Shown: piece by piece, positions 43,963-64,000 of the stretch | Numbering within the stretch: position 1 is the first letter of the stretch | Layout: each line of letters begins with the position of its first letter | Assembly: GCA_964415355.1 (NCBI GenBank) | Contig: CAYPYS010000007.1 | Coordinates: 11,208 to 75,207 of the forward strand | Origin: an uncultured Planctomycetia bacterium | Lineage (GTDB): Bacteria > Omnitrophota > Gorgyraeia > Gorgyraeales > Gorgyraeaceae | Length of the DNA stretch: 64,000 bases | Direction of reading: 5' to 3' | Notes under the pieces: model-generated | What the model was told of the DNA's origin: nothing | The model's database searches: none | What the model saw: only the letters and a program-made list of their open reading frames with translations | Translations under genes and position numbers: made by a program

Positions 43963-43980
43963 GAGTTGAAAGGGGGATCT

Positions 43981-48084: not shown

Positions 48085-48089
48085 GCTTT

Positions 48090-51000: not shown

Positions 51001-51899
51001 TAAAGAAATACGAAGGAGCAGAGGTCGCTATGCATTACACAGGAAGGACAGAAGACGCTATTGACATTGACCTGGAAACTGCTTCTGTGGAAGATGTATT
51101 GGCAGCATTTCTGGCAACAATAGAGTCAGGGGATTATATCTATCTTTCTCCTTATACATTTGATTCTCCTGCGCTGCAAAAGGCCTTTTCTGAGATAAGG
51201 AGTATTATAAGAGATAATCATCCTGCTCATCCAGCCACGCTTTTTGGCATTGGCTCAAGGAGCCAGCATTCCGACAATCAGCTTAATAACGCCACTGACC
51301 AGGCAACGGTATTGGCGTTTACCTTTGATTCGGCCGAAGGTGTTGATAGGGCAGTGCCCGGTAAAAATTATACACTGGCTCAGGAAAACATGGCGCATGC
51401 ATTGGGAACGGTAGGCGCGCTGGAGGATAAGGGAAGAAGGGTCATGAGGATCCACCTTTCCGATGAGTACAGGCAGGACATAACAAAATTAACAGCACTC
51501 TTTGAGAAAGCCGTTGCAAGGATGCGCGGAATGGAATTAGTCAGGTCATCGAGTAAGCAGCAGGCCGCGTCAATGGAACAGATCCTGGTCGTTCCCGCAA
51601 ACAAGGTAATAGCCGATAAAGAGGGTTTTGAAAAATGGATGTCATCCGGCCGCCAGGAAAATAACGCTGTGGTGATAGTAGCTTATGATGTCGACGAATA
51701 CAATCGGGTCAAGGAATTCGGGGACATTGCCTATATAAGGGTAGTCGGAAAGGATATTAGCGAGGAATACGACCTTAAGCTGCTCCAGATGTTTGCATTG
51801 TTCGGAAAAGATAATATGTTTGGCGGATTTATACTTGGGACACCGGCTGACCTGGATGATTTCAGATCAGTTTCCGAAGAGATATCCTCTGGCGTCTAA
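48090..51899 (+). CDS. Giant fusion ORF 2 (1269 aa): aminotransferase C-terminal remnant, alpha-D-phosphohexomutase, glucose-6-phosphate isomerase, shared C-terminal domain
   Basis: GTG start 5 nt after the ORF1 stop, in the -1 frame. 'FVPGWPFLGESNQIRLSF' (aminotransferase end); 'FGTAGWRG', 'TASHNP', 'DGDGDR', 'EESGH', 'RASGTTNTIRIYAE' (PGM/PMM); 'GTGGSGLG', 'SKSWGTTET', 'GGRYSS' (PGI). Confidence 0.8.
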   Translation: MPGWPFLGESNQIRLSFPTNSPDIIDGAVKAVSIAIKDSMGKGTLAMEGQVPAADLEILTNFGTAGWRGTDFTDGNVRRMAQAVAEVGIAEINKPVSEIRMAVGYDARPGAREDAILLTEVLVANGIHVDFIDQVLPSPVMIEVTHGSVPDSERYDLTVYFTASHNPVYQSLDPLKQYKGIKILIEGVPAGDEFTSKISARANDLAKNATYKYIPFDQIPDMLITHDVDLIAKDRARLEKAFGLSDYGVKIARLFTIFPNLTIRISPMNGATVEQIAIFDKIGLPVVFYDTAPLHEVIASGEYELQTADGIMKGPDPTKPYNLNAEMLKDTEGQDVIKFLIDGDGDRLVVEDINGRPITPNEIGLIIAHYLLEHKGEEGYVVRTLPTTRMLDRLARKFGMPLAQTGVGSKNFGPYTVQGTEQRLIVAVEESGHVFFRLGDEIFVDHAVAEALILLDIMATTGKTLTQYLEEVERELGTIHYKRDAVAKELAVPGLKRGLLWLRNNDPELLARAIADELGMDLKGFDPLDKTGVLVTFEDDQWILPRASGTTNTIRIYAETSSQEDLEKWISGAERVLVKLVNDMAAQGILDRSPDIWSHVIERGKSLAGDIVKWLGWVDAPVRFLKRMSKIRSLKSELAEEGITNVVVLGTGGSGLGIGTYAEVFEKDNLIVIDLEDPQGIQNAMAWVDERGWDKTIFTVQSKSWGTTETRNAEAVFRQVLADRIGAENVARHFIAVTDAGRIKGEERANFREIFATNYPGDARKGRDIGGRYSSDSFFSLVPAELAGIPHEELLVDARDEYNQFRRELGEYIGVRIGAELSRFHGLGRNKITFILDKGLEAFGPWVQQLINESVGKNEDTVVCVTGEEFSGDSSVYGDDRVFVKIAIGKGPAMQVTEQGIVLIVESKNDINRLQYRFKVATAILANLMGVHPFNQPFVESSKWITKGLLDSELTPEQLTAELVVAASENLKKYEGAEVAMHYTGRTEDAIDIDLETASVEDVLAAFLATIESGDYIYLSPYTFDSPALQKAFSEIRSIIRDNHPAHPATLFGIGSRSQHSDNQLNNATDQATVLAFTFDSAEGVDRAVPGKNYTLAQENMAHALGTVGALEDKGRRVMRIHLSDEYRQDITKLTALFEKAVARMRGMELVRSSSKQQAASMEQILVVPANKVIADKEGFEKWMSSGRQENNAVVIVAYDVDEYNRVKEFGDIAYIRVVGKDISEEYDLKLLQMFALFGKDNMFGGFILGTPADLDDFRSVSEEISSGV
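48264..49830 (+). other. alpha-D-phosphohexomutase (PGM/PMM/GlmM-family) module
   Basis: Catalytic-Ser loop 'TASHNP' (48573-48590), metal loop 'DGDGDR' (49113-49130), sugar loop 'EESGH', phosphate loop 'RASGTTNTIRIY'. Confidence 0.8.
49900..51540 (+). other. Glucose-6-phosphate isomerase (SIS-fold PGI) module
   Basis: 'VVVLGTGGSGLG', 'SKSWGTTET' (50193-50219), 'IGGRYSSDS', 'GIGSRSQHSDNQL'. Confidence 0.7.
51576..51896 (+). other. Shared C-terminal domain (~107 aa), copy in giant ORF 2
   Basis: EQILVVPANKVIADKEGFEKW...AVVIVAYDVDEYNRVKEFGDIAYIRVVGKDISEE...NMFGGFILG...DLDDFRSVSEEISSGV. About half the positions are identical to the ORF3 C-terminus. Confidence 0.8.
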
Positions 51900-51935
51900 C
51901 TTTACATTTCAACGTTGTTGAAATGTAAAGTTAAG
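51897..51935 (+). repeat. Palindromic repeat copy 35 (T1, fwd, perfectly complementary arms)
   Basis: taactttacatttcaacgttgttgaaatgtaaagttaag; TAA is the stop of giant ORF 2. Confidence 0.9.
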
Positions 51936-52079: not shown

Positions 52080-52520
52080 ATGAAGATATCTACAAGAATC
52101 AGATATGGCACGCGTTTGATGCTGGAATTAGGGCTTTCTTATAAGGAAGGCCCTATTTTTTTAAAAGATATTGCCAGGAAGCAGGAGATCTCTGAAAAAT
52201 ATTTAAGCCAGATCATCATTCCTCTAAAGGCTGCAGGCCTGATCAATACTTATAATGGCGCTCACAGCGGATATGTCCTAGCTAAATCTCCGCAAGAAAT
52301 AACAGTGAAAGAGATAGCAGAGATCGTAGAAGGGAATTTCGATCTTATAGAATGTGTGACTAACCCTTCCGGATGTGCACGCGCAGCTATGTGTGCGACA
52401 AGAGATCTATGGGATGATCTGGGCAGGACGATCGCGGAAAAACTCGATTCATTCACTATTAAGGATTTAATAGATAGATCCAAAGAAAAACAGGAAAATT
52501 CAACAGCATATAATATCTGA
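52080..52520 (+). CDS. Rrf2-family (IscR/NsrR-like) transcriptional regulator with a three-Cys cluster-binding motif
   Basis: 'MKISTRIRYGTRLMLELG' N-terminus, wHTH 'ISEKYLSQIIIPLKAAGLI', Cys motif 'CVTNPSGCARAAMC'. The stop lies 25 nt before giant ORF 3 with no repeat between. Confidence 0.85.
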   Translation: MKISTRIRYGTRLMLELGLSYKEGPIFLKDIARKQEISEKYLSQIIIPLKAAGLINTYNGAHSGYVLAKSPQEITVKEIAEIVEGNFDLIECVTNPSGCARAAMCATRDLWDDLGRTIAEKLDSFTIKDLIDRSKEKQENSTAYNI

Positions 52521-52545
52521 TTATCCTAGGACAAGGAGATTAAAA

Positions 52546-52629
52546 ATGACCTGGAAAATTATAAGAAAAATTACTTCTATTGTAATACTCATAACTTTTC
52601 TATCTACCAATGTCATATACGCGGCTCCG
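52546..52629 (+). other. Shared 28-aa N-terminal leader, copy in giant ORF 3
   Basis: MTWKIIRKITSIVILITFLSTNVIYAAP. The nucleotide sequences of the two leaders differ at many synonymous sites, so the peptide is conserved rather than recently copied. Confidence 0.8.
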
Positions 52630-55600
52630 GGGCCCCGCAAGACACTAAGGGTGCCTCTGGGGTTTGCGAGAGAAAAGCTTTTAGAGCAGGAGCAAACAGG
52701 GCTTCCCACAAAGGAAATGCTTCTTATGATGGCCCAGGCAGTAGCCATGAGGATGGATGACGAATCCATACTCATGGATCTAGGGACTACTTTTTTCAAC
52801 ACAGCCTTTCGCAGAAATCTCGGCTCTCCTATCGAGATCCGCAGGAATAAAAATACAGGTACAGTCCATATCCGTTACAATGACAGATATATATCCATAA
52901 CAAGAAGCGGAAACATATCCGTGTCAAGCAGAATAAACTTTGATAAAGCCGAGCTCGTGATTGCCAGCATCAAGCCGCTTGTCGCATCCTCTTCTGATCC
53001 GACTGATAAAAAAGACAGGACAATAGGGTCTCTTCTCGGACTAATGGAGACATTTGCAGATCTCGGGCTCAAGCCAGGAGAGAAGATAACCATAAATGAC
53101 ATAATCCCTGAAAGAAAAAAGCAGGACGGTACATTGTATTCTCGTACGACAGTCTCAAGAGAATTTAAGGATGCAGTGGCGCTTGACCTTTTGAGGCTCA
53201 CAGGCAACAAGATAAAAAATAGCAATGAATATGAAGTCCTGAAGTCTTTTACGAGAGAACAGCTTAGTAGATTGCCGGGGCATATAAGGAAAAAGTTAAA
53301 CAGGGGCAGGATCAGATCTGATGAGATAGAAGAGCTCAGGCGCATATTCATAGCTGAGACATTAATGGGGCAAGGGACATTGCTGAAGGTATTCCTGGCA
53401 GGCCTTGCAGGTTTTCAGGAGGCGCTTGCAGACATACCTTATGATCTTTCAGGCGCAAATACTGAGACGGTCCAGAGTTTATTCACGGCTGTTGAAAACA
53501 TAGTTTTCCTGGCAAGGGATTTTGATAAAAAAGATCCTGCCTATGCCGAGGCTTATATCTATGAAAGCTTAGGGTTTGTTGATATTGATGGGAAAAGAAG
53601 ACTTGCTCTTGTCATCACGCCTTTTGAGGACAGGAGAAAGACCGGGTCCCTGGATGTCCTGGTATTTGATTCGCTTCTATCCGCGAATTATACGAGCCAC
53701 GCAATAAAAGCGACAGAAATAGAAATGGTGTCTACTATTGTCGGACGCCTGGATGAAAAGGATATTATCTCGCTTTCTCTTAAGTTCAGGGCAGAGTATC
53801 TGGATAACCCTGATGGCCCTGGCACGAGCGACACAAGGCGATCTGCCAAGGATTTTTTCCTGTATTTTGCCTCAAAGCGTAACGCAACCCAGGAAATATT
53901 GGATTTGGACGAAGAACTGATAGATGGTCTGGAGGGAAGGGACCTGGAAATAAAAGAACGCATGGCGCGCCTGAAAGAGGGCGTGTCGGATAAAGATCTT
54001 CTGGACGAATGGTTTATAGAAATTATGCAGGGAAAAGATACTCTTGTTCAGTACCTGTTATACACAGGGGACGCGGCTACATTCTGGTATGATTTACTGC
54101 TGGAGCTTGATTATACGCGCGCAATAAATGAGATGTTTTTATCAAGGCCTGACGCAATGACAACTTATGCCAGAAATGCATACGAACAGGCAGTCGTGGC
54201 CTCATGGATTTATATTCACCGCGCTGATTTTGGATCGCCTTTAGGAGAGAGGGCAGCCGAGGACAGAATAGAGGATTTTCAGCTGGCCCTGACATGGGAC
54301 ACGCTTGGCATACCAGGCCAGAAGGCGCTTGGCATGACAAAGGCAGAGTTTCCTGTGTGCTTGAATTGTGTTGGAAGGCCCTGTCAGCATGGGCCGCTGG
54401 GAAGCGTTGCTGCCCAGACGCGCACAAGGTCGGGTTTCGCCTCAGGCATAAGGTCTTTGATAGAAGACAATAATGTCTCTGCCAGCGTTCAGTTAGAGGG
54501 CGTATTTATATCCGAAGGAGTTTCATACTTAACCCATTTATATAATTATGCTGAACTATTGCTTATAGACCAGGCAGACGTCACCAGGTGGATGAATATG
54601 ACAGCGAGGGAACTGGACAGCGAAATAAGGTTGTTGACAGATGATGCAGACGCAATAGATCAAGAGGCAAAAAACATCGCAGAGCCGCATTGCCCGTTAG
54701 AGGTTCCTATCGCGGATATGTTCAGGCTTATGCGGCAGGATAGATTTGAAGAGGCGCTTGAGATCTTGAATAACAGCAGTTTTCTTGCAGGTATCTTCGG
54801 GCTCGTATGTCCCCAGGAACACCTGTGTCAGGCCGCGTGCGTCCAGGGCAGGCTGAGCGACAGGCCTTTGCCCATAGATATAGGAAAATTAGAATATCTC
54901 ATAGAGCTTACTTATATGAGGATAAACGGAGAATTGCCTATGCCTGAGGTCGCACCATTTACAGGAAAGTATGTCGCGATTATAGGTTCTGGCCCGGCAG
55001 GACTTCAGGCAGCATATGACCTGGCAAGAGAGGGTCACAAAGTGGTTTTATTCGAGCACCTGCATAAGGTCGGAGGTGTTTTAGTATATGGTATACCTAC
55101 ATTCAGGCTTCCTCCCGAGCTCCTCGAAGAAAAGGTCAGGATACTTAAGGAGATGGGCGTAAACTTTGTCACGAATGCTATTATAGGAGAAGACGGTGCG
55201 TATACCATAGAGGAGATGAGAAGATCATTTGACGCAGTAATAGTGGGCGTTGGCGCAGGCCAGTCAAACAAGATGGAGATAAGAGGCAAGGTGGTCCTTC
55301 TCGACGAAAAAACAGGAAGGGCAAGATTAGAGGTGCCTGAATACGCAAAGAGAGTGCCGATACCGGGCAGGGCCTTGAATGGCATTTATTCAGCGTATCA
55401 TTTTCTTTCATGGACATATCTGATGAATGCAATAAAGCCGGGTTATGATACGCCCATACCGCTCTCAAAAAATATACTCCAAGCATTTACGGAATCCAGG
55501 GCTACAGGAGAGGAAAAAGAAGTTACTGTGGTCGTAGAGGGCATAGGAAACGTGGCGCTGGACAGCGGCAGGACAGCTCTCAGATGGATAAATGTCCTGA

Positions 55601-58600
55601 ACAGGATATATGGCACAAATGTCAGGCCAAAGATCATATTCCTCTACAGGCGTCCGAGGGAAGAACTGGACCTCAAGGCGCGCGCAGAGGAATTAAAACA
55701 TCTCAGGGAAGAAGGCGTTGACACAATAGACATAGACGTATATGAGCTTCACCAGACCGTTGAATATCTCGGAAATACAAAGGGACATATAGAAGGAATA
55801 AGGGCCATAAGGTATGACAGAAAAGGCGCTAAGGAAGGCGTGCTGGTCGACATCCCCGTTGACATGGTTGTAGAAGCCCTGGGAGCAAAGCCGGCGACCG
55901 AGATATTAGGACCTTCCATACCTTTAAATAGATACGGGTATATCGAGATAGATAATCACAGGACAATGCAGGTAAGAGACATGGACGGCTCTGATGGCCT
56001 GGCGCCTGTATATGCTGTCGGAGACTGCGCAGAGGTGGACGCTATAGATGAAAGGATTATGGCGACCGCTGTCCTTGCTGCAACGCATGGAAAAAGGGCA
56101 TCCGAGGCACTCATAGAAAGACTGGATAATGAGACTGGCATGGTTCAGAGATATATAGATATCGATAAGGTATTTTTTAAAGCTACTCCATACAGGATGC
56201 ATGAGATATTGGAAAGGCGCAGGATAGGCAAAAGAGAGCTTGTATCCAGGCCGCTACGCGGAGATACGGGCAATGTTTTTAGCGAGCAGAGGATCGTGGA
56301 ATTTACTATTTATGCGCCTCATGTAGCCCGCAGGATCAGACCGGGCCAGTTTGTAACGCTGATGGCAGATGAATACAGCGAGAAAATACCTATAACATAT
56401 GTCGGTCTTGGAAAGATAAAAGGCAGTATACGCCTTGCCATCCTTGACGCAGGCGAATCAACAGTAAAAATAAATAATATGAAAAAGGGTGATTTGTTTT
56501 ACGCAGTCACCGGACCTGCAGGAGAACCTTCGATCTTTACAGGGCTGGCAGGCGAGGTAGACCTGGTGGGGTTGGGCAGTGGCATAGCCGCGATTGTCGG
56601 CATCGCCGAGCACAGGGCAGACCTGGACAGGAAATATAAAGAGTTGATGGCCAGGCTGGCAGGCAATTCCCGCGCAGATGTAGTCCTGTCGCTGATAGAA
56701 GAGATTTGGTCAGAATTGAGTCTTGCAAAGGATGATCTTTTGCACTATATAGTCGATGCGATAAGAGACAGGGATTATAATGAAGCAAAGAATCTGTTGA
56801 CAGCACTTGCCTACTCTATTGAACAGGATTTTCCGGCGAGCGAGCTTATAGCAGATGCAGAAGCACTGGTTGATACGATAACCATGCTCGAGGATTCTGT
56901 AGAAGACGAGGATGAATTGAATCTGCTTGTAAAACAGGAGGTCTATCAGGCGATAGACGATATATGGGAAGAGTTTGAGATATTAAAGAGAGAGAAACTA
57001 TTAAGGGAAATCAGTGATTTTGTATCTTCCGGAAATTACAAAAATGCATCTAATGCCTTGAATGCCGTTATCGGCGCAGGCTTTGAGACAAAGGTATTTC
57101 TGGCTGTCGGGAATAAGGATCTTTTGATGTATAAGACCGAGCTGGAAGAGGCTGTTGGCAGGGAGAACATATTCATAGCGCTTGAGGATGCCGAGGGCTT
57201 TGATCCGCATGCCGAAGGATATGCCAGCCTGATAGCGCATGAGAACAGGTTTTTTACAGGTTATGGCACTATTGCTTTTGGGGATTATTTAGGCAGGACG
57301 CATGATCCTATTAGCGGATTGTTGGTAGCAGGACCTGCGTTCGCAATGAATCTTTTTGTGCCATTGGTCAGAGAAGCAAACAGGCCTGATATCCTGAGTA
57401 CGAGAGACGTGTGGATGAGTACTAACCCGCCCATGTACTGTGCCTACGGCGGTTGTTTGATGTGTCTGGTGGCTACAGAACAGGCGATTCCGTGGCGCGG
57501 GTGTTTAGGTCCTGAGGCAGAGGCAGATATGCTTATCGGCGATTCTATTGTCAAGGGGCTTGAAATGAGCAAGCCTCAAGACATAATGCCGGGCGTTATA
57601 TTCAGCACGTCACCTTCTGTTGACAGGGAGCAAGCGATATCTGATATAGTGCAGGCGCTTGATGAGATTCTTTATATGCCTACTGTAGATGGTAAATTAT
57701 TTGTTGCCATATCTGATGCAAAGGGTTCGTTTATCGCTGAGTTAAGAAATGGTATTTTAGAGGAGAGATTATCTGACGAGGATATTGATGCAGTGCTCGA
57801 GAATATTGATTGGGAAAGACTAGGTGTTTTTAAGCCAGGCCATAAGATAAGGTTTGCAGGTAGGATATCCGATGTCTCAGGATTAGAGCTTGATAGGGTC
57901 ATGGAATTGCTCGGACTGACAATGCAGGGTGGAAGCGGTGCAGAAGATTCTGATTCCGGGATGACGCTCGATGATTTATTCAGTAGGAGCTTGGATCTCT
58001 CGATACTTGGCATAGAGGTCATCGGAGAATTCCGCGAGGTCTCTATATCGCCTTCCGGTTTTTCACGGCTCCGGGCGTTCCTTGAGGAGATCGGCGATAG
58101 ACAGAAGTTGGAAGAAATTTTGGGACTCGAAGGAAGTGAGTTTATTTTTGTTATGAATGGCGCGAATGAGCTTGTCGCGATTGTGATCCGCAACGAGACC
58201 AGGCAGAAAGAGCTTCTATGGATAGAGGGAGAGGCATCGTCCGAACTTTTCAGCTATCTGACTCTGAGAGCCTCTCTGCGTGGCAGTTCTATATCCGCGG
58301 ACCTGACAGTGGAGGAGATAAAACCCGGCGCAATACTCGGACCCGGCGCGACCACTACTCCCGCAAGCTCTGCCCTGGCAAAGACAGGGACGTGGACCAC
58401 GAAATACGCAGAGCATGATCTTGATGCGTGCGTGCAGTGTGGCCTGTGCGCACTGGTATGTCCCGAAGGCGCGATAGCGTTTGATATGGAGCCGGCGCTG
58501 AATACAGGCAGGCTGGTCCTTCCGACAAATCCTGATTATTGCAAGGGCTGCGATGCCTGCGTGGTACATTGTCCTTTAAAAGGATACGCGCTTAAGATGA

Positions 58601-61600
58601 TAGAAAAGACAGACCTTCGCCAGGTAGCAGTATCTCTGGATACGAATCCTGAGGGAAGAGGCGTTGTTATCGAAGGCGCTCCGGCATTACAGTTTGAAGG
58701 GCTGTTTAAGGAAGGCATTGATAGATTCAAAAAGGCATTAGGGCTCGATGTAGTTGAGATAATCAGCGAGAGTGAATCTTTTGTGCAGGTGAGGTATGAG
58801 AGAGGTGACATAGCATATCTTTTTACATTCGATAAGAAAAATACAAGATTGATCTTGAAACCATTGAGGACATTTGCCGTCGTTGGCCTTGAGAGTAAAA
58901 ATATTGATCTGGCAGATGCATTGCGCAGCAGGGGATTTGCGGTTACCGGCTTGATTTCTACTAAAGACAGAGGTTTTAGAGATAAATTAATGGAGGCCGA
59001 GAGACAGGGTATCAGTGTTTATGCGATAGAAGCAGGTTTGCTAAACCCTGGTATTAGCGGCAGTCTTCAGGCATTGCTTAATGACATCGAACGCCTGCGT
59101 CTTGCTAGATTTGTCGCGGTTGACACAGAGACGATCAGGGAGATAATCGGCCTGGACGAATACACGAAACTCGTCGAGGAGATAAACGAATATACACATA
59201 ATTCTATAATAAACTCTGTGGATTTGTTGCCGACAGGCAACACAGACTTTGATGAGGTCATGGCGAGTTTTGCTCCCGAATGGCAGGACCAGGTTCGCGA
59301 CCTCGCGCCCGGACACGGCCTATGCCCCGGCTGCGGTCAGCCGACAGACACGCACCTTGTATTAAAGGTAGCGGATGAACATGGAATGGCGCCGGTGGGT
59401 GTCATTACGACAGGCTGCCAGGAAGTCTCGACCACTAACTGGCCTTTTAATTCATGGCGCATACCAATGGTCCACGGAAACTATACAGCATCAGCCGCAA
59501 TCGTCAGCGGTATCTTCCGTGTCTATCAGTGGTTCAAAAAGATGGGCGTAAGTGTTTACGGGGATAAAGAAATCTTGCCTATAGTTATTATGGGAGACGG
59601 TGGTTTTGCAATAGGGCTAAATGTAATATCAGGCGGCCTGGAAAAGGGATTACCGATTTTATATCTGGTCGAGAATAATTCAGGCACTCAGAATACGGGC
59701 GCGCAGGCATCCACGCTTTCGATGCCGGGCATAACTGCGCAAGGCGCCTCACAGGTAAAGACCACGCAAGGCGTGTATATACCTGATATAGCAAAGGCGC
59801 ACGGACCTAACGTCTATTACGCAAGGGTTTCCAATGCATATCCCGAAGATTTTGAGAGAAAATTAAACCGCGCAATGGAATGGATAAAACAGGGAAGAGG
59901 ACCTGCGGTCATAGAGTCTTTTAACACCGCATGCCCTACCGGCTGGAAGTCTGACGCGACACAGAGCCAGGAAGAAACCTCTCTTTCGGTCCAGACAGGC
60001 GTTGGCATGACTGTGCTTTTTGAGCAGGTCGGGAATCGCATAAGGATAACGCAACCACCTCTTCTAAGAGACGGAAAGATATATATAAATACAGAATATA
60101 TGCGAAGCCTGGAATATGAGTTAGGTCATTTAAGGAATGCCGGCGGCAAGAGGCTGTTATCTGACAGACAGGTGGCTTCCATGATTTCGCATATCAAGAA
60201 GAGAAGGGAATTTATTTTGGCAAGAGAGCTTGAAAGAAGACAGCCTAAAAAACCAGGCCTGCCGTTTGTCCAGCTCGACTTAGATGCGTTAAAGAACCTG
60301 CTTGTCCTTCATTCGTTCAACCTGCCTCTGGAGTCAGACCTATTGATAGACAGGTTGGATGTCCTGGGCCTTTCCGGAGACGAGATAGAGGACATTGCGC
60401 AGCATCGGTCAGAGGGTAATGAATTCAGAAACAGGCAGGACGTGCTTCGGTTTATAACCGATGTGCGTTACAGAGAGGTTACGGAAAGAATACTTGATAT
60501 ATATGACACAGTCGAGATCAGGGATTTTATTATGGAATGGACAGAGACAAAGGAAGAGGGAAATATCGATTTCGAGGAGACCGTTGTATTTGAGAAGATA
60601 GAAGATATTTTGAAAGTCCCGGGCATAGGGCCAGTGACGTATGATGCCGTAAGTCCGTATCTTACATTAGAACCGAGAAGACCTCATATATTCGAATACT
60701 TATCGAGACAGGGAAGATTCAGGAGGCTTCTTGGCTGGGATGACGAGGCGTTTCTGGGAGACATGCAGCGAGATGTGGACGCGCATATACTTAGGCTGAT
60801 GGCGCAGCATGAAAACGACAGGGCTTTCTTTGAGAACTTTGATAATTTACTGGCCAGAGGAGAAAAAATCCCGGTAGAGCAGTTCAGGTACAAGTCAGCA
60901 AGGGAGGCGCATGACAAGGCCCTTGTTCCTGCTAGAGTCATACCTGCGGATCCGGAAAGAAACATCAGGATTTTAGAACGCAGGGCAAGGCTAGGGGATA
61001 GGGTTTTTGAAGAACGCTGGCATGGAAGAGGCGGCCAGGGTGCTATTACTGCGGCAACGCTTCTGGCAACATATGCGGGCGAGGTAGAAGGTATAGGCAT
61101 TCAGGCGTTTCCGCACTTTGGGGTCGAACGCGCAGGTGCGCCTGTAAAGGCATATGTCAGAATGGGTAATAATATAAAACAGCATGACCCTGTTACGGAA
61201 CCTGATGTAGTAGTGGTTATAGATGAGTCTTTGCTGGAACTTCCCGAAGTGTTGGAAGGTATAAAGCCGGGCGGTTTTCTATTGGTGAATAGCAAAAAGC
61301 CGGCTGAAAAAATACTGGAAGAATTAAGGGCTAAAGGCAATGCGCTTAAGGATATTACTCTTTTTAGCGTGGACGCTACCGGTATAAGCATAAAACACAT
61401 GGGAAGAAATCTCCCTAATATTCCTATGCTGGCTGCGAGGATTATGGTTTCGAGGCTTACTGATGCAGACTTGGGTCCGGCAGAAGGCGCCACGGATTAC
61501 ATAAGGCAGCTTTTAGTAGAGATGTTTGGAGAAAAGATAGCCGGATTAAATTACGACGCGATGCAGGAATCAGTACGTTCTATAGATGCTGTATCAGGCG

Positions 61601-63657
61601 CTGTTGAAGAGTTGATAGAAGAGTTTCTGGCAAAAAGAGAGCCTGTTGAAATTGATGTTGCTCAACCGGAAGAAGAAGACGCAGCGCTAAAAAGTAATGT
61701 CAGGCTCATGAATTCAAACAAGGCAGCTGCTATTGCACAGGTGCAGTCTGGCGTAAAGTATGTCCCCGGCTATCCGACAACCCCTGCGAGCAGTGTGGTC
61801 GAGATATTGGATACATATCAGGACAAGGGCTTGCCGCTTATAGTATCGCTTCTTCCTGCAGAAGACTCAGTGGGCGGAGAATTACTTGGCACTGCGCTGG
61901 CAGGAGGCATGCCTGCGACAGGGACTACATCAGTGGCATTGGCGTATATGTTTAACCAGCATCTTGCAGATATGGTAGGTAAAAGGACGCCTGTTGTCGT
62001 AAATGTGCCTGTCCGCGCATTGAATATAGGTTCCTTGAGTATATTTCCCGACGAGACAGACATAGCAATGTTCAGGGATTATGGTGTGTATCTGCGCGCG
62101 CGCAATGCGCAGGAAGTGTATTATTTCAATATCATTGCGTGGAGGATCGCAAAGAAACTTAGGATGCCTGTATTCGTAGTGTATACGGGATTCCGCAACA
62201 GCCATACCACAGAACCTGTCGAAATACTCGGTGATTACGATAGAATAGAGGAGTATCTGGGCGGGACAGGATTATTTTCTATAAGAGATACTATACTGGA
62301 CCAGGAATCGCCTAAGATGATAGGGCCTGTTGTCGGCAAAGAGATCATGATGGAGCAGATGGCAGAGCTTTTTGAGGATATAGCACGAAATCAGGACCAT
62401 GTAATAGAGGAGGCTTTTGCGGAATTTGAAAGGCTCTTTGGTATTAGGTTTGATAGATTCAGGCAGTATAGGGTCGAGGATGCCGATGAGATAATAGTGG
62501 TGCAAGGAGATACAGGCGAGACTATCGAGCTTATGGTCGACAGATTAAGGGACCAGGGCAGAAGGGTCGGCGTAATAGAGATAGCTACAATAAGGCCTTT
62601 CCCCGGGAAGGAATTAAGAGAGGCGCTTGTTAATATAAATCCGAAGATAATAACTGTCCTGGATAATGCGCCGAGCCACTATTTGTATGATGATGTCGTA
62701 AGGTCTATCCAGTTTACAGATATACAGGTCTGGGGACCTGTGATATATGGTCTGGGCGGGAGGGATTTCTTCAGACAGGATGCGGTAACGCTTTATGATA
62801 CGCTGATCTCGCTTAGAGTGCTTCAGGCATTAGGAGCAAAAGAAAGTCCTGTTTCTCTGACCAGAGCGTCTCTGACGCAGCTTTTGAATGAGGAGGCAGT
62901 GACACTGGGCATGGCAAAGCACGGATTTGTCGAACCAGGCGATGCGCTTGCGGGCCGGCGAGGAGCAAGAAGCATCCCGGCGATACTTGACACGCTGGAT
63001 TTTGCAGCCAGCTCGGCTGATATGCCTGGATTTTCAAGAAACGCTGTCTTTGAAAAGTTGACGCAGGGTGAGCTCCTCAAGCTTTTTGGCGACGAGTATT
63101 ATTTTGGAGCTCGCAGGAAATATAAGCATGATCTGCTTATGCACGCGCTGGTGAATGAGTTGGCAGTCAGGCTTTCTAGGCAGTTACTGGGATCTAATAT
63201 CGGCACTATAGACGAGAGGACGCAGGCAATAGATGCGCTCGTGCATTTGAGTGACATAGAAGCGGATAAGGAACTCGCCAGAACAAGCTCTGAGAGTTTG
63301 CGCAAGTATCGACGCAGGGATCAGGTTGCTTCAACGGACCAGATTATCGCAGTGTCTGCCGCACAGGTCATAGCCGAGAAAAAAGAATTCGAGGCATGGA
63401 TAGAGAACCAGTCAGAGAATATTGCTGTAGTTATAATAGCTACGGCTGAAGAGTATTATCAGGTCAGGGAGTATGAGGACATCGCCTATATAAAGGTAGT
63501 GGGCAAGGACATTAGCGAAGCGCATGGCCTTACCTTGAAAAGGTTGTTGGCATTGCACGGTCATTTAGATAATTTCGGTGGCTTCAGGCTTGGCGACGAA
63601 AAGTTCGATCTAGACGAATACAGGTCAGCCCTGACCGAGCTCTCCACCGGCATCTAA
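52546..63657 (+). CDS. Giant fusion ORF 3 (3703 aa): signal-like leader, unknown ~600-aa region, NfnB/GltD-like flavoprotein, NfnA/PyrK-like module, PorD-, PorB-, PorC- and PorA-like 2-oxoacid:ferredoxin oxidoreductase modules, shared C-terminal domain
   Basis: Uninterrupted 11.1-kb ORF with SD aaggag 7 nt before the ATG. Domain motifs are listed in the separate domain features. Confidence 0.85.
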   Translation: MTWKIIRKITSIVILITFLSTNVIYAAPGPRKTLRVPLGFAREKLLEQEQTGLPTKEMLLMMAQAVAMRMDDESILMDLGTTFFNTAFRRNLGSPIEIRRNKNTGTVHIRYNDRYISITRSGNISVSSRINFDKAELVIASIKPLVASSSDPTDKKDRTIGSLLGLMETFADLGLKPGEKITINDIIPERKKQDGTLYSRTTVSREFKDAVALDLLRLTGNKIKNSNEYEVLKSFTREQLSRLPGHIRKKLNRGRIRSDEIEELRRIFIAETLMGQGTLLKVFLAGLAGFQEALADIPYDLSGANTETVQSLFTAVENIVFLARDFDKKDPAYAEAYIYESLGFVDIDGKRRLALVITPFEDRRKTGSLDVLVFDSLLSANYTSHAIKATEIEMVSTIVGRLDEKDIISLSLKFRAEYLDNPDGPGTSDTRRSAKDFFLYFASKRNATQEILDLDEELIDGLEGRDLEIKERMARLKEGVSDKDLLDEWFIEIMQGKDTLVQYLLYTGDAATFWYDLLLELDYTRAINEMFLSRPDAMTTYARNAYEQAVVASWIYIHRADFGSPLGERAAEDRIEDFQLALTWDTLGIPGQKALGMTKAEFPVCLNCVGRPCQHGPLGSVAAQTRTRSGFASGIRSLIEDNNVSASVQLEGVFISEGVSYLTHLYNYAELLLIDQADVTRWMNMTARELDSEIRLLTDDADAIDQEAKNIAEPHCPLEVPIADMFRLMRQDRFEEALEILNNSSFLAGIFGLVCPQEHLCQAACVQGRLSDRPLPIDIGKLEYLIELTYMRINGELPMPEVAPFTGKYVAIIGSGPAGLQAAYDLAREGHKVVLFEHLHKVGGVLVYGIPTFRLPPELLEEKVRILKEMGVNFVTNAIIGEDGAYTIEEMRRSFDAVIVGVGAGQSNKMEIRGKVVLLDEKTGRARLEVPEYAKRVPIPGRALNGIYSAYHFLSWTYLMNAIKPGYDTPIPLSKNILQAFTESRATGEEKEVTVVVEGIGNVALDSGRTALRWINVLNRIYGTNVRPKIIFLYRRPREELDLKARAEELKHLREEGVDTIDIDVYELHQTVEYLGNTKGHIEGIRAIRYDRKGAKEGVLVDIPVDMVVEALGAKPATEILGPSIPLNRYGYIEIDNHRTMQVRDMDGSDGLAPVYAVGDCAEVDAIDERIMATAVLAATHGKRASEALIERLDNETGMVQRYIDIDKVFFKATPYRMHEILERRRIGKRELVSRPLRGDTGNVFSEQRIVEFTIYAPHVARRIRPGQFVTLMADEYSEKIPITYVGLGKIKGSIRLAILDAGESTVKINNMKKGDLFYAVTGPAGEPSIFTGLAGEVDLVGLGSGIAAIVGIAEHRADLDRKYKELMARLAGNSRADVVLSLIEEIWSELSLAKDDLLHYIVDAIRDRDYNEAKNLLTALAYSIEQDFPASELIADAEALVDTITMLEDSVEDEDELNLLVKQEVYQAIDDIWEEFEILKREKLLREISDFVSSGNYKNASNALNAVIGAGFETKVFLAVGNKDLLMYKTELEEAVGRENIFIALEDAEGFDPHAEGYASLIAHENRFFTGYGTIAFGDYLGRTHDPISGLLVAGPAFAMNLFVPLVREANRPDILSTRDVWMSTNPPMYCAYGGCLMCLVATEQAIPWRGCLGPEAEADMLIGDSIVKGLEMSKPQDIMPGVIFSTSPSVDREQAISDIVQALDEILYMPTVDGKLFVAISDAKGSFIAELRNGILEERLSDEDIDAVLENIDWERLGVFKPGHKIRFAGRISDVSGLELDRVMELLGLTMQGGSGAEDSDSGMTLDDLFSRSLDLSILGIEVIGEFREVSISPSGFSRLRAFLEEIGDRQKLEEILGLEGSEFIFVMNGANELVAIVIRNETRQKELLWIEGEASSELFSYLTLRASLRGSSISADLTVEEIKPGAILGPGATTTPASSALAKTGTWTTKYAEHDLDACVQCGLCALVCPEGAIAFDMEPALNTGRLVLPTNPDYCKGCDACVVHCPLKGYALKMIEKTDLRQVAVSLDTNPEGRGVVIEGAPALQFEGLFKEGIDRFKKALGLDVVEIISESESFVQVRYERGDIAYLFTFDKKNTRLILKPLRTFAVVGLESKNIDLADALRSRGFAVTGLISTKDRGFRDKLMEAERQGISVYAIEAGLLNPGISGSLQALLNDIERLRLARFVAVDTETIREIIGLDEYTKLVEEINEYTHNSIINSVDLLPTGNTDFDEVMASFAPEWQDQVRDLAPGHGLCPGCGQPTDTHLVLKVADEHGMAPVGVITTGCQEVSTTNWPFNSWRIPMVHGNYTASAAIVSGIFRVYQWFKKMGVSVYGDKEILPIVIMGDGGFAIGLNVISGGLEKGLPILYLVENNSGTQNTGAQASTLSMPGITAQGASQVKTTQGVYIPDIAKAHGPNVYYARVSNAYPEDFERKLNRAMEWIKQGRGPAVIESFNTACPTGWKSDATQSQEETSLSVQTGVGMTVLFEQVGNRIRITQPPLLRDGKIYINTEYMRSLEYELGHLRNAGGKRLLSDRQVASMISHIKKRREFILARELERRQPKKPGLPFVQLDLDALKNLLVLHSFNLPLESDLLIDRLDVLGLSGDEIEDIAQHRSEGNEFRNRQDVLRFITDVRYREVTERILDIYDTVEIRDFIMEWTETKEEGNIDFEETVVFEKIEDILKVPGIGPVTYDAVSPYLTLEPRRPHIFEYLSRQGRFRRLLGWDDEAFLGDMQRDVDAHILRLMAQHENDRAFFENFDNLLARGEKIPVEQFRYKSAREAHDKALVPARVIPADPERNIRILERRARLGDRVFEERWHGRGGQGAITAATLLATYAGEVEGIGIQAFPHFGVERAGAPVKAYVRMGNNIKQHDPVTEPDVVVVIDESLLELPEVLEGIKPGGFLLVNSKKPAEKILEELRAKGNALKDITLFSVDATGISIKHMGRNLPNIPMLAARIMVSRLTDADLGPAEGATDYIRQLLVEMFGEKIAGLNYDAMQESVRSIDAVSGAVEELIEEFLAKREPVEIDVAQPEEEDAALKSNVRLMNSNKAAAIAQVQSGVKYVPGYPTTPASSVVEILDTYQDKGLPLIVSLLPAEDSVGGELLGTALAGGMPATGTTSVALAYMFNQHLADMVGKRTPVVVNVPVRALNIGSLSIFPDETDIAMFRDYGVYLRARNAQEVYYFNIIAWRIAKKLRMPVFVVYTGFRNSHTTEPVEILGDYDRIEEYLGGTGLFSIRDTILDQESPKMIGPVVGKEIMMEQMAELFEDIARNQDHVIEEAFAEFERLFGIRFDRFRQYRVEDADEIIVVQGDTGETIELMVDRLRDQGRRVGVIEIATIRPFPGKELREALVNINPKIITVLDNAPSHYLYDDVVRSIQFTDIQVWGPVIYGLGGRDFFRQDAVTLYDTLISLRVLQALGAKESPVSLTRASLTQLLNEEAVTLGMAKHGFVEPGDALAGRRGARSIPAILDTLDFAASSADMPGFSRNAVFEKLTQGELLKLFGDEYYFGARRKYKHDLLMHALVNELAVRLSRQLLGSNIGTIDERTQAIDALVHLSDIEADKELARTSSESLRKYRRRDQVASTDQIIAVSAAQVIAEKKEFEAWIENQSENIAVVIIATAEEYYQVREYEDIAYIKVVGKDISEAHGLTLKRLLALHGHLDNFGGFRLGDEKFDLDEYRSALTELSTGI
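54358..56125 (+). other. NfnB / GltD-like (glutamate synthase small-subunit family) FAD/NAD(P)H oxidoreductase module with a split N-terminal Fe-S motif
   Basis: 'CLNCVGRPC' ... (~100-aa insert) ... 'HCPLEVPI', 'GLVCPQEHLCQAAC', dinucleotide fold 'KYVAIIGSGPAGLQAAYDLAREGHKVVLFE', 'GGVLVYGIPTFRLP', 'VYAVGDCA'. Confidence 0.75.
56165..57530 (+). other. NfnA / PyrK-like ferredoxin-NADP reductase-type module (FAD barrel, NAD fold, 2Fe-2S) with a ~155-aa helical insertion
   Basis: 'RPGQFVTLM', 'IPITYVG', 'TGPAGEP', 'DLVGLGSGIAAIVGIAEH', then an insertion at 56610-57085. The fold resumes at 'KVFLAVGN' and ends in the Cys motif 'MYCAYGGCLMCLV...RGCLGPE'. Confidence 0.65.
58320..58610 (+). other. 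PorD-like (delta subunit) 2x[4Fe-4S] ferredoxin module
   Basis: 'KPGAILGPGATTTP...KTGTWTT' followed by 'CVQCGLCALVCP' (58428-58463) and 'CKGCDACVVHCP' (58540-58575). Confidence 0.85.
59300..60030 (+). other. PorB-like (beta subunit) thiamine-diphosphate-binding module
   Basis: 'GHGLCPGCG', 'TTGCQEV', TPP motif 'GDGGFAIGLNVISGGLEKGLPILYLVENN' (GDG-X24-NN), 'NTACPTGW'. All four Fe-S Cys positions are present. Confidence 0.85.
60365..60665 (+). other. Two ComEA-like helix-hairpin-helix-type segments in the PorB-PorC linker
   Basis: 'IEDIAQHRSEGNEFRNRQDVLRFI' and 'ILKVPGIGPVTYDAVSPYL' resemble the A-x-x-I-x-x-yR-x-x-G-x-F...L-x-x-V-PGIG pattern. Confidence 0.35.
60990..61490 (+). other. PorC-like (gamma subunit) module
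   Basis: 'WHGRGGQGAITAATLLA', 'AFPHFGVERAGAPV', 'PDVVVVIDESL', 'VDATGISIKHMGRNLPNIPMLAA'. Confidence 0.85.
61695..62815 (+). other. PorA-like (alpha subunit) module
   Basis: 'MNSNKAAAIAQVQSGVKYVPGYPTTPASSVVE', 'AEDSVGGELLGTALAGGMPATGTTSVALAYM', 'TPVVVNVPVRAL', 'PVFVVYTGFRNSHTTEPVE', 'IRPFP'. Confidence 0.85.
63337..63654 (+). other. Shared C-terminal domain (~106 aa), copy in giant ORF 3
   Basis: DQIIAVSAAQVIAEKKEFEAW...AVVIIATAEEYYQVREYEDIAYIKVVGKDISEA...DNFGGFRLG...DLDEYRSALTELSTGI. Confidence 0.8.
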
Positions 63658-63692
63658 GTTTACATTTTAACGTTGTTGAAATGTAAACTTAG
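63655..63692 (+). repeat. Palindromic repeat copy 37 (T1 variant, fwd)
   Basis: taagtttacattttaacgttgttgaaatgtaaacttag; TAA is the stop of giant ORF 3. Confidence 0.9.
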
Positions 63693-63905: not shown

Positions 63906-64000
63906 TTTTTGGAGAGTTTGATTCTGGCTCAGAACGAACGTTGGCGGCGTGGATAAGGCATGCAAGTCGAACGGTCCGCTTCGGCGGACAGTGGCAAAAG
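63906..64000 (+). rRNA. rrs: 16S ribosomal RNA, 5' end (partial, continues beyond the window)
   Basis: 'agagtttgattctggctcagaacgaacgttggcggcgtggataaggcatgcaagtcgaacgg' matches the universal 5' region (27F primer site, helix 1-5 sequence). The start is set by alignment of AGAGTTTGAT to E. coli position 8. Confidence 0.9.

Follow-up and report, generated by a model that had tools for sequence, protein, structure and literature searches.

A giant Omnitrophota protein that joins Nfn-like flavoprotein modules to all four parts of a pyruvate-type oxidoreductase

Can one bacterial polypeptide carry both the enzyme that releases low-potential electrons from a 2-oxoacid and the flavoproteins that would deliver them to NAD(P)+? 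An earlier note, made from sequence alone, proposed this for a 3,703-residue reading frame in an uncultured bacterium, describing six modules in the order NfnB/GltD, NfnA/PyrK, PorD, PorB, PorC and PorA. It inferred an internal electron wire that bypasses free ferredoxin. We examined this frame within the 64,000-nucleotide stretch of DNA that contains it (hereafter, the window). The observation stands: the gene is real, and its modules lie in the order proposed. The interpretation is supported only in part, as the wire remains an inference, and several features of the protein change how it should be read.

A single uninterrupted gene

The frame (52546–63657, + strand) opens with ATG and runs for 3,703 codons without a stop of any kind under table 11 (probability (61/64)^3703, about 1e-77), which excludes stop-codon reassignment as the source of a false fusion. 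A good Shine–Dalgarno sequence, AAGGAG (52533–52538, +), lies 7 nt upstream of the ATG, and is the only one at a module boundary; the one other in-frame start with a similar site (GTG, codon 1341) lies inside the NfnA module. A palindromic hairpin, a presumed terminator (63654–63692, +; 18-bp stem, −20.8 kcal/mol, z −6.4), begins at the TAA stop codon, which its stem contains, and is one of about 30 copies in the window. An Rrf2-family (IscR-like) regulator gene (52080–52520, +; Pfam Rrf2, E 5e-35) stops 25 nt before the giant gene and is probably co-transcribed with it; a 64%-identical Rrf2 gene also precedes the orthologue in L022 (below).

The genome is from Omnitrophota: its TyrRS is 71–80% identical to about 25 Omnitrophota MAGs and at most 54% to anything else. 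The identical 3,703-residue product occurs on a 55-kb JGI contig, and fragments of 90% identity or more come from ENA and JGI assemblies. Collinear orthologues without frame breaks, with the same TyrRS synteny, occur in three other Omnitrophota assemblies, labelled here P0002/L001, P0008/L022 and L014; P0002 (55% identity) and P0008 are full length, whereas L014 covers the N-terminal part only. All sources are metagenome assemblies and the adjacent sister gene does carry a frame break at an A-run, but a mis-assembled chimera or a decaying pseudogene that happens to stay open is very improbable given the open frame, the identical product on a second long contig with fragments from other assemblies, the orthologues and the conservation of cofactor ligands described below. 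The earlier note had likewise judged a decayed relic unlikely.

Profile searches, which the note had set as its test, recover the modules in the proposed order. Pfam identifies Fer4_20 (residues 712–786), Pyr_redox_2 (810–1182), a Fer4 dicluster (1955–2013), TPP_enzyme_C (2333–2457), POR (2829–3008), POR_N (3065–3286) and PFOR_II (3313–3411). NfnA/PyrK has no Pfam hit but is found by NCBIfam PRK12778 and by Thermotoga maritima NfnA (4ylf_A). Every motif cited in the note is present: KYVAIIGSGPAGLQAAYDLAREGHKVVLFE at 808–837, VYAVGDCA at 1155–1162, MYCAYGGCLMCLV...RGCLGPE at 1630–1657, two CxxCxxCxxxCP at 1962–1973 and 1999–2010, GDG-X24-NN at 2350–2378, HGRGGQGA at 2826–2833, FGVERAGAPV at 2858–2867 and YPTTPASS at 3076–3083. 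Pfam hits revealed no intein signatures, and a self-blast found no internal repeats.

The Nfn-like half

The NfnB/GltD-like module (54334–56145, +; residues 597–1200) aligns to T. maritima NfnB (4ylf_B, E 3e-57). It has the seven Cys and one Glu expected to hold two [4Fe–4S] clusters (C605, C608, C613, then, after a ~100-residue insertion, C716, C755, E758, C761 and C765), a FAD motif GSGPAG (814–819), and an NADPH site formed by GIGNVA (999–1004) and YRR (1034–1036). The first three Cys precede the HMMER alignment and are assigned from the CxxCx4C pattern, partly by analogy with NfnB and GltD sequences. The ligands are invariant in four orthologues.

The NfnA/PyrK-like module (56146–57537, +; residues 1201–1664) comprises a FAD-binding barrel, a NAD domain with glycine loop GLGSGIA (1342–1348), a ~150-residue helical insertion (residues 1361–1512, nt 56626–57081) that the note had not mentioned, and [2Fe–2S] ligands C1632, C1637, C1640 and C1653. 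It aligns to 4ylf_A (E 4.5e-17) in two stretches that include the cluster loop. This site differs from the unusual Asp plus three Cys ligation of T. maritima NfnA: the position of the Asp (VDGTGMCGAC) is Cys here (YCAYGGCLMC), giving a PyrK-like four-Cys site. Nfn-like redox tuning is therefore not assured, and P. furiosus Nfn2 shows that Nfn homologues need not bifurcate. Among solved structures the Nfn half is nonetheless closest to the bifurcating NfnAB of T. maritima and P. furiosus (186 and 164 bits, against about 110 bits for GltD). Scores are below the curated family cut-offs (PRK12778, 312 bits against 1103; TIGR01316, 240 against 472).

The oxidoreductase half

The oxidoreductase half has all the modules of the 2-oxoacid:ferredoxin oxidoreductase (OFOR) superfamily. 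The PorD-like module (58345–58605, +; residues 1934–2020) has an N-terminal arm and two CxxCxxCxxxCP motifs (eight Cys), and aligns to Methanosarcina acetivorans PFOR delta (9bt4_G) as well as to Pfam Fer4 families. The PorB core (59296–60063, +; residues 2251–2506; also an NCBIfam PorB hit) has [4Fe–4S] ligands C2260, C2263, C2291 and C2463, the thiamine-diphosphate (TPP) motif GDG (2350–2352)-X24-NN (2377–2378) and an NTGAQ motif, aligning to 5c4i_C and 9bt4_C. The PorC-like module (61006–61581, +; residues 2821–3012), with GRGGQG at 2827–2832, matches Pfam POR (E 1.7e-27), 2raa_A and 9bt4_E, and scores 147 bits with TIGR02175 (PorC_KorC), above its 81-bit cut-off. The PorA-like module (61696–62805, +; residues 3051–3420; POR_N and PFOR_II) aligns to 6cin_A and 1b0p_A. 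Here T3079, E3106 and R3157 align to the T of YPITPSS, the E of MQSEAG and the R of TARAI in Desulfovibrio africanus PFOR (Thr31, Glu64 and Arg114), the substrate-binding Thr and Arg and the TPP-activating Glu. Pyruvate-type models score best (PorA 171–179 bits, PorB 132 bits), but all NCBIfam equivalog models, for either half, fall below their cut-offs, the PorC_KorC subfamily model alone passing; pyruvate as substrate and the exact family are thus inferred.

All 28 Fe–S ligands are present and conserved in the orthologues, which are only about 55% identical or less. The Fe–S, FAD, NADPH and TPP ligands are invariant in the orthologues that cover them, the only changes being in the PorC glycine loop (P0002, P0008), the NfnA NAD loop and PorA T3079F (P0008).

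Segments between and within modules

The note had left ~600 residues at the N terminus, and ~260, ~230 and ~320 residues before PorD, PorB and PorC, without recognizable motifs. We find that these are not plain linkers: the segments are 40–53% identical with few gaps, and three of the extra segments are insertions inside NfnB, NfnA and PorB. A Pfam search of six unknown segments gave only noise and one weak helix–hairpin–helix hit. The N-terminal unknown region ends at about residue 596, as the first NfnB Cys motif (CLNCVGRPC) lies at 605–613. Beyond the leader, it divides into N-a (52630–53385, +; residues 29–280), which is poorly conserved (32% identity to P0002 with 127 gap columns), and N-b (53386–54333, +; residues 281–596), which always precedes the NfnB-like module, is 53% identical in P0002 and is also present in P0008/L022 and L014. 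Neither has a Pfam hit, and an AlphaFold2 model of N-b from a two-sequence alignment (pLDDT 45) was unusable. L1 (57538–58344, +; residues 1665–1933), which separates the Nfn and OFOR halves, is 43% identical to P0002 with few gaps and no credible Pfam hit.

L2 (58606–59295, +; residues 2021–2250) is predicted to form a small beta sheet plus a Rossmann-like alpha/beta domain (AlphaFold2 pLDDT 85–94 over its core), with no GxGxxG motif. It is collinear in 11 members of what we recognize as an undescribed family of single-chain delta–L2–beta–gamma–alpha oxidoreductases, of which it is the hallmark. The ~320 residues before PorC are mostly a ~200-residue insertion inside PorB (60064–60675, +; residues 2507–2710; 53% identity to P0002), before which the canonical PorB alignment stops, plus the C-terminal tail of PorB. 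The insertion carries a helix–hairpin–helix motif at about 2681–2707 (weak Pfam HHH_3, E 4e-5, below the gathering score). The tail and a short spacer (60676–61005, +; residues 2711–2820) contain RRPHIFEYLSRQGRFRRL..., a motif shared with ordinary and fused PorB sequences (LKVQGRFKHLF in the database protein P0010, LKRQGRFAHLF in P0015).

The note had also missed a ~280-residue C-terminal extension. Its first part, C-a (62806–63210, +; residues 3421–3555), has the motif FGDEYYFGARRKY, conserved in P0002 and P0008, and the second (63211–63654, +; residues 3556–3703) is a domain discussed below; neither has a Pfam hit.

These observations bear on whether the chain is a polyprotein, cut at conserved inter-module segments into an ordinary four-subunit oxidoreductase and an ordinary NfnAB-like complex that communicate through free ferredoxin. 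West-Roberts et al. (bioRxiv 10.1101/2023.11.21.568195) propose proteolytic processing of Omnitrophota giant proteins from N-terminal C39 and S8 peptidase domains, and long non-catalytic segments do separate the modules here. However, we detected no peptidase domain in this protein or its unknown segments, cutting at the three intradomain insertions would split catalytic domains, L2 is a predicted folded domain conserved across the single-chain family, and no internal start with a Shine–Dalgarno site lies at a module boundary. We consider this reading unlikely.

A leader and a C-terminal domain shared with a neighbouring giant

The protein begins with a signal-peptide-like leader that the note had missed, MTWKIIRKITSIVILITFLSTNVIYA|AP (52546–52629, +; residues 1–28), which by hydropathy scan is the only hydrophobic segment that is a plausible membrane helix. 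Its motif is conserved in orthologues and in the paralogous giant enzymes up1 and the two giant ORFs of L014. Upstream lies a sister giant (43966–51899, +) of two ORFs (1,372 and 1,269 residues), which together read as leader, unknown N-domain, aminotransferase, PGM, PGI and the same C-terminal domain, split by a −1 frame change at GGTAAAAAGGTAG (about 48070–48084). The C-terminal domain match (blastp, 44.7% identity over 150 residues, E 3e-26) is to the end of ORF 48090–51899. A leader-proximal HIQDLH...GGFH domain of the sister proteins had no match in PDB or Pfam; a Tiki/TraB-like fold was suspected but could not be supported.

The leader resembles a cleavable Sec signal peptide (basic n-region, hydrophobic core, IYA|AP), which would place a cofactor-rich enzyme outside the cytoplasm, incompatible with the mechanism below, and is hard to reconcile with a soluble cytoplasmic redox enzyme. 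A 2026 preprint (bioRxiv 10.64898/2026.06.07.730766) assigns signal-peptide or transmembrane topologies to 94% of long Omnitrophota proteins and reads the multi-enzyme content of its largest giant as periplasmic or extracellular, and West-Roberts et al. note glycolytic domains predicted to be extracellular. Action in the periplasm, on the cell surface or in a host or prey cell, as proposed for other Omnitrophota giants, nevertheless seems very unlikely. Sec exports unfolded chains, no machinery is known that inserts five Fe–S clusters, two FAD and TPP outside the cytoplasm, and NAD(P)H, CoA and sugar phosphates are cytoplasmic metabolites. Furthermore, the leader has no twin-arginine motif, and West-Roberts et al. 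themselves caution that the extracellular call may be a topology error. The leader and C-terminal domain more probably tether or sort these catabolic megaenzymes to a common place at the membrane, a localization that is inferred.

Distribution of the fusion

No protein with the same Nfn plus OFOR combination turned up outside this small Omnitrophota group, and literature searches for a described Nfn–OFOR fusion found none. A genome-contig scan with a two-sequence alignment found nothing, its patterns coming from the N-terminal unknown domain. Profile searches of a 5.8-billion-protein index returned one 169-residue fragment for the C-terminal domain and nothing for N-b, but as neither returned the query itself both are uninformative about rarity. 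A metagenome-contig scan, which relied on generic GltD/NfnB patterns (GGV..YGIP), returned only ordinary nfnB loci of 40% identity or less; among 80 of these only one had por genes within 10 kb, arguing that the fusion is not just operon compaction.

The note's statement that prokaryotes keep these parts separate is too strong. nfnA and nfnB are fused in some bacteria (the PRK12778 model; C. ljungdahlii, PMC5861303), single-chain delta–beta–gamma–alpha OFORs and GltD–PorB fusions exist in the databases, and multi-enzyme giant proteins are a described trait of Omnitrophota.

Proposed mechanism

Our analysis establishes the gene, its modules and ligands, their conservation and the taxon; catalysis, substrate, stoichiometry, intramolecular electron transfer and localization are inferred from sequence alone. 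On balance we favour, with moderate confidence, a leader-bearing megaenzyme in which NfnB- and NfnA-like modules were added at the N terminus of a single-chain oxidoreductase whose modules have the unusual order delta–L2–beta–gamma–alpha. In this view the alpha/beta TPP site would oxidize a 2-oxoacid, most likely pyruvate, with CoA to acyl-CoA and CO2, and two low-potential electrons would leave through the beta [4Fe–4S] cluster and the two delta [4Fe–4S] clusters. Rather than being handed to free ferredoxin, they would pass to the two [4Fe–4S] clusters of the NfnB-like module and on to its FAD, which would reduce NADP+; a covalently attached PorD dicluster domain is a plausible stand-in. As a complete NfnA-like module (FAD, NAD site, [2Fe–2S]) is also present, the natural prediction is not the simple NAD(P)+ reduction of the note but an Nfn-type three-way reaction (defined for Nfn in PMC5861303 as the coupling of 2 Fd_red + NADH + 2 NADP+). 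The most likely overall reaction would be confurcation, 2-oxoacid + CoA + NADH + 2 NADP+ giving acyl-CoA + CO2 + NAD+ + 2 NADPH, which could be reversible. Omnitrophota are described as fermenters that use pyruvate:ferredoxin oxidoreductase (PMC10066038), and GltD-type modules fused to PorB provide an independent precedent.

About 270 residues (L1) lie between the halves, which could equally act on free ferredoxin. Fusion would then serve stoichiometry, co-regulation or membrane tethering, as part of a general Omnitrophota habit of stringing metabolic enzymes together. The neighbouring giant joins aminotransferase, PGM and PGI, which share no electron chain, relatives join the same OFOR chassis to Ptb, Buk and amino-acid dehydrogenase, and the N terminus is shuffled, with L014 carrying a different N-domain. 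Against this, the partners fused here are exactly the producer and the consumer of reduced ferredoxin, the combination is kept over at least 45% sequence divergence, and in relatives the fused partners are consecutive pathway steps (2-oxoacid to acyl-CoA to acyl-phosphate to acid), suggesting channelling and not random concatenation. We regard co-localization alone as possible but doubtful.

A bolder and tentative proposal, less likely than not, is that the protein is a self-contained, flavin-based electron-confurcating 2-oxoacid:NAD(P)+ oxidoreductase that merges electrons from the TPP site with those of NADH to make two NADPH, with no diffusible ferredoxin; run backwards, it would be an NADPH-driven, bifurcation-powered pyruvate synthase. 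It would be one unit of a lineage-wide arrangement in which fermentation and glycolysis are built from megaenzymes sharing one N-terminal leader and one C-terminal domain, assembled at a common membrane site. If the wire is real, this would be the first case of a bifurcation-type Nfn module hard-wired to its low-potential electron source, a natural single-polypeptide system for studying how OFOR and Nfn clusters are coupled, and a template for ferredoxin-free 2-oxoacid/NADPH interconversion. More widely, Omnitrophota giant proteins are not only adhesins or cell-wall effectors; core catabolic redox enzymes are also built as leader-tagged fusions, which sharpens the question of where, and in what form, these proteins work.

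Comparison with known systems

The two preprints on Omnitrophota long proteins describe the same phylum, many unrelated enzyme Pfams tiled on one chain, N-terminal signal-peptide or transmembrane features, and phosphoglucomutase and glucose-phosphate isomerase domains such as those of the neighbouring gene. They treat proteins of 10,000 residues or more, a length that this 3,703-residue protein does not reach, with sugar-metabolism or adhesion content, and neither text contains ferredoxin, pyruvate:ferredoxin oxidoreductase, Nfn or glutamate-synthase terms.

NfnAB, the NADH-dependent ferredoxin:NADP+ oxidoreductase (T. maritima 4YLF; P. furiosus NfnI 5JCA), is the best structural relative of residues ~600–1660 and has the same cofactor set. 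The giant differs in its single chain in B-then-A order (known fused forms, such as the PRK12778 model, are A-then-B), its ~100- and ~150-residue insertions, its four-Cys [2Fe–2S] site and a covalently attached OFOR as electron partner in place of free ferredoxin. Four-subunit oxidoreductases (PorABCD; M. acetivorans 9BT4; Moorella thermoacetica oxalate oxidoreductase 5C4I) share all four modules, ligands and the TPP motif, but here these are fused in the order D–B–C–A, with L2 between D and B and an insertion that splits PorB from its tail. Single-chain PFOR (D. africanus 1B0P; M. thermoacetica 6CIN) also holds all OFOR functions on one polypeptide, and the PorA part of the giant aligns to it over ~360 residues (E 1e-30 to 1e-37). 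However, PFOR runs alpha–gamma–delta–beta and reduces free ferredoxin or flavodoxin; the delta–beta–gamma–alpha order is not a circular permutation of it, so the fusion arose independently.

NADH-dependent phenylglyoxylate dehydrogenase PadEFGHI of Azoarcus/Aromatoleum is an OFOR-type enzyme that reduces NAD+ directly through an added GltD-like FAD/Fe–S subunit (we observed an NCBIfam NF045764 hit to PadG, E 4e-30), but has five separate subunits, no NfnA-like partner and a different substrate. Among database proteins, the single-chain delta–L2–beta–gamma–alpha OFORs (P0010, P0012, P0013, P0026, P0031, P0021 and P0011) share the collinear PorD–L2–PorB chassis and often a hydrophobic N-terminal leader, with butyrate kinase, phosphate acyltransferase, amino-acid dehydrogenase or nothing, not Nfn, as partner. 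In the GltD–Fd–PorB fusions (P0015, P0019), P0015 independently joins a GltD-type module to PorB but lacks the gamma, alpha and NfnA parts. The eukaryotic pyruvate:NADP+ oxidoreductase of Euglena and Cryptosporidium, to which the note had likened the protein, shares the concept of a 2-oxoacid oxidoreductase fused to an NADP+-reducing flavoprotein that makes ferredoxin unnecessary. It is a PFOR followed by a C-terminal cytochrome-P450-reductase-type FMN/FAD module, whereas here we find no Flavodoxin_1, FAD_binding_1 or NAD_binding_1 hits, and the reductase is N-terminal, of the GltD/PyrK type, carries three extra Fe–S clusters and has a second nucleotide site. Were the inferred wire real, the giant would be a bacterial, independently evolved counterpart of that enzyme.

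A single uninterrupted reading frame

The gene at window 52546–63657 (+) is a single ORF of 3,703 codons that starts with ATG, and its translation contains no internal stop; we calculate that an open frame of this length has a chance probability of about (61/64)^3703, roughly 1e-77. AAGGAG lies 7 nt upstream of the ATG, and the TAA stop codon sits in the stem of an 18-bp hairpin (−20.8 kcal/mol, z = −6.4). Each of the motifs that the earlier note had read from the sequence is present in the translation, and its observation, a single polypeptide combining NfnB- and NfnA-like modules with all four 2-oxoacid oxidoreductase subunits, is confirmed. An artefactual origin is a highly unlikely rival explanation. 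The identical 3,703-aa product is found on a 55-kb JGI contig, fragments at 90% identity or more come from separate ENA and JGI assemblies, and collinear orthologues exist in three other assemblies, providing independent support for contiguity.

The hairpin at the stop codon (63655–63692) is one of about 30 copies in the window (for example, 6566–6603, 7371–7408, 13009–13046, 42639–42676 and 51897–51934) of a ~38-nt perfect palindrome, TAACTTTACA(C/T)TT(T/C)AACGTTGTTGAA(A/G)TGTAAAGTTAG, which follows almost every gene and folds into an 18-bp hairpin. In about 20 copies its first TAA is the stop codon of the upstream ORF. It has no Rfam match, and a search with the same regular expression found it in none of the other Omnitrophota loci retrieved; it looks like a species-specific terminator or processing element that embeds the stop codon.

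Module order and cofactor residues

Pfam searches identify, in order, Fer4_20 (residues 712–786), Pyr_redox_2 (810–1182), a 4Fe-4S dicluster (1955–2013), TPP_enzyme_C (2333–2457), POR (gamma, 2829–3008), POR_N (3065–3286) and PFOR_II (3313–3411). The NfnA/PyrK-like module (1201–1664) is supported by NCBIfam PRK12778 and by T. maritima NfnA (4ylf_A). NCBIfam adds PorB (2252–2506), PorC (2821–3011; TIGR02175 above its cut-off) and PorA (3052–3419), together with a three-stretch match to the bifunctional PyrK/GltD model PRK12778. The best solved relatives are T. maritima NfnB and NfnA (4YLF), P. furiosus NfnI, single-chain PFORs and the four subunits of M. acetivorans PFOR.

Residue-level alignments show that in the NfnB-like module CLNCVGRPC (605–613) is followed by an insertion of about 100 aa and then by C716, C755, E758, C761 and C765, together making the 7 Cys + Glu set; GSGPAG (FAD), GIGNVA and YRR (NADPH) are also present. 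In the NfnA-like module, the FAD barrel and the glycine loop GLGSGIA are followed by a ~150-aa helical insertion, and the [2Fe-2S] loop has four Cys, the first of which replaces the Asp of T. maritima NfnA. PorD retains eight Cys, PorB four Cys plus GDG-X24-NN, and PorA the Thr, Glu and Arg that align to the substrate- and TPP-binding residues of D. africanus PFOR. In a four-way orthologue alignment, all Fe-S ligands and the FAD, NADPH and TPP motifs are invariant wherever a sequence covers them, with variation limited to the PorC glycine loop, the NfnA NAD loop in the orthologue P0008, and T3079F, also in P0008.

Conserved segments between and within modules

The stretches without motifs are not loose linkers. 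Against the 55%-identical orthologue P0002 they keep 40–53% identity with very few gaps, compared with 53–69% for the catalytic modules. Three are insertions inside domains, namely in NfnB between its third and fourth Cys, in the NfnA NAD domain and in PorB, whose usual C-terminal tail (...EYLSRQGRFRRL...) reappears about 200 residues after the core; the PorB insertion carries a weak helix-hairpin-helix match. L2, the segment between PorD and PorB, aligns collinearly in eleven related proteins and is predicted (pLDDT 85–94) to form a small beta sheet plus a Rossmann-like alpha/beta domain. The N-terminal segment N-b (281–596) precedes the NfnB module in all four orthologues but could not be identified. 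Processing of the chain as a polyprotein, as proposed for other Omnitrophota giants, is a rival reading of this architecture.

Genome context, taxonomy and relatives

The window is ordinary bacterial chromosome with normal-sized housekeeping genes (RNR, trigger factor, ClpP, IF-2, NusA, ProRS, TrpRS, TyrRS and S1), isoprenoid and aromatic amino-acid genes, and LPS genes, which indicate a diderm. The 5′ end of a 16S rRNA gene (63906–64000; Rfam RF00177, 70.9 bits) lies about 250 nt downstream of the giant gene and is cut off by the end of the window. A TyrRS profile finds about 25 MAGs named Candidatus Omnitrophota at 71–80% identity, some of them labelled "uncultured Planctomycetia", whereas the next-best phyla reach at most 54%.

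Two of those loci carry the giant gene downstream of TyrRS. Locus L022 encodes P0008 (3,969 aa), preceded by an Rrf2 gene as in the window. Locus L014 (Omnitrophota UBA10183, DNHS01000043.1) carries two consecutive leader-bearing giants, the first (11282–14242, 986 aa) with a phosphofructokinase-like sequence (IIIAMGGGDTAGLN...) and the second (14269–21158) an Nfn-OFOR orthologue whose N-terminus is the leader plus the N-domain of the window's upstream gene, followed by N-b, NfnB and NfnA; this swap shows domain shuffling at the N-termini of these proteins. Locus L001, encoding P0002 (3,729 aa), also has TyrRS immediately upstream. In many Omnitrophota MAGs (loci L007, L009, L011, L013, L017 and others) the contig ends within 1–3 kb downstream of TyrRS, where the giant genes or the rRNA operon would lie, and assembly breaks may therefore hide further copies of this gene.

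We next searched 1.84 billion representative proteins with HMMER, using residues 1690–2820 as the profile. The full-length hits that also carry the Nfn half were P0001 and P0008, and two short fragments, P0009 and P0032, resemble the same L2-PorB and PorB-tail/PorC regions. The same search exposed a wider, unnamed family of single-chain PorD-L2-PorB-PorC-PorA proteins, found alone (P0010, P0013 and P0031), with the N-domain type of the first upstream ORF (P0012), with phosphate acyltransferase and, read from the sequence motif GSTSTK, butyrate kinase (P0026, 2,693 aa), or at the end of a 5,785-aa chain with seven strongly hydrophobic segments between its enzyme modules (P0011). A further member, P0021 (a 2,232-aa fragment), strings a Glu/Leu/Phe/Val dehydrogenase, a butyrate-kinase-like part and PTA_PTB in front of the OFOR, covering a whole amino-acid fermentation route on one chain. 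Separately, P0015 (1,049 aa) and P0019 (705 aa) are independent fusions of a GltD-type module to PorB, with the architecture Fer2_4–Fer4_20–Pyr_redox_2 (GltD-like)–4Fe-4S domains–PorB, and suggest that NAD(P)-linked OFOR beta subunits evolved more than once. The order delta-beta-gamma-alpha is not a circular permutation of the alpha-gamma-delta-beta order of classical PFOR; the fusion therefore arose independently.

Shared leader and C-terminal domain

Residues 1–28 (MTWKIIRKITSIVILITFLSTNVIYA|AP) have a basic start, a hydrophobic core and a small-residue cleavage-like site. No other plausible transmembrane helix exists, the one other hydropathy peak being the beta strand around the GDG motif. 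The same motif heads P0002, P0008, the upstream gene (MYRRRINRITSIVTLLTFLSTSTLYAAPSS) and both giant ORFs in L014, one of which looks like a phosphofructokinase fusion from its sequence. Export of the protein is an unlikely rival explanation. At the other end, the last 150 residues are 44.7% identical (E 3e-26) to the end of the upstream PGM-PGI protein.

The two upstream ORFs (43966–48084 and 48090–51899; 1,372 and 1,269 aa) look like one gene broken by a −1 frame change at GGTAAAAAGGTAG (about 48070–48084), which splits an aminotransferase domain: the Aminotran_1_2 match ends at profile position 243 of 361 at the end of the first ORF, and the second opens with aminotransferase-like sequence, then PGM and PGI. 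Together they read as leader, N-domain, aminotransferase, PGM, PGI and C-terminal domain. The cause could be a homopolymer error, a pseudogene or programmed frameshifting; the same break is in the JGI contig L002, which may not be an independent assembly. The pair shares the giant's N-terminal leader and C-terminal domain, and the locus therefore holds two sister megaenzymes with common ends. A ~480-aa domain follows the leader in several sister giants (window 44230–45680, residues ~90–570 of the first upstream ORF; L014 14520–15980; P0011 46–505; P0012 49–510), with invariant motifs IQDxHxNxE, EG, DTS and GGxHTxG. It has no match in Pfam or PDB, and a suspected resemblance to the Tiki/TraB/ChaN-type GxxH superfamily could not be supported.

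Inferred mechanism

NfnAB catalyses 2 Fd_red + NADH + 2 NADP+ giving 2 Fd_ox + NAD+ + 2 NADPH, and the NfnB FAD is the bifurcating site (PMC5861303). OFORs release two low-potential electrons through the beta and delta clusters. We infer that in this chain the PorD dicluster domain takes the place of ferredoxin, such that 2-oxoacid oxidation would feed the NfnB clusters directly. With NADH entering through the NfnA-like part, the predicted reaction is 2-oxoacid + CoA + NADH + 2 NADP+ giving acyl-CoA + CO2 + NAD+ + 2 NADPH. The four-Cys [2Fe-2S] site differs from that of T. maritima NfnA, however, and not every Nfn homologue bifurcates, P. furiosus Nfn2 being an example. Pyruvate is the best-scoring substrate class, but all those scores are below equivalog cut-offs, and the signal-peptide-like leader is the main observation that this picture does not explain. 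Co-localisation of the two halves without an electron wire is a further rival. The interpretation of the earlier note is supported only in part: our analysis establishes the architecture, whereas the internal wire from 2-oxoacid decarboxylation to NAD(P)+ reduction and the predicted reaction rest on inference, and the note had missed context and complications.

Comparison with known systems

Two preprints report that Omnitrophota giant proteins can carry glycolytic and other metabolic domains, usually with signal peptides or transmembrane helices; neither text contains the terms ferredoxin, pyruvate:ferredoxin oxidoreductase, PF01855, PF07992 or glutamate synthase. Our literature searches found no description of an Nfn-OFOR fusion. 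Functional analogues exist in eukaryotic PNO and in the five-subunit NAD+-reducing phenylglyoxylate dehydrogenase, whose alpha-subunit model PadG matches the PorA part (E 4e-30). An OFOR with a built-in NAD(P) module and a multi-enzyme protein of Omnitrophota each have precedent, and we therefore regard the Nfn-OFOR chain as a new form of both and not as a categorically new system.
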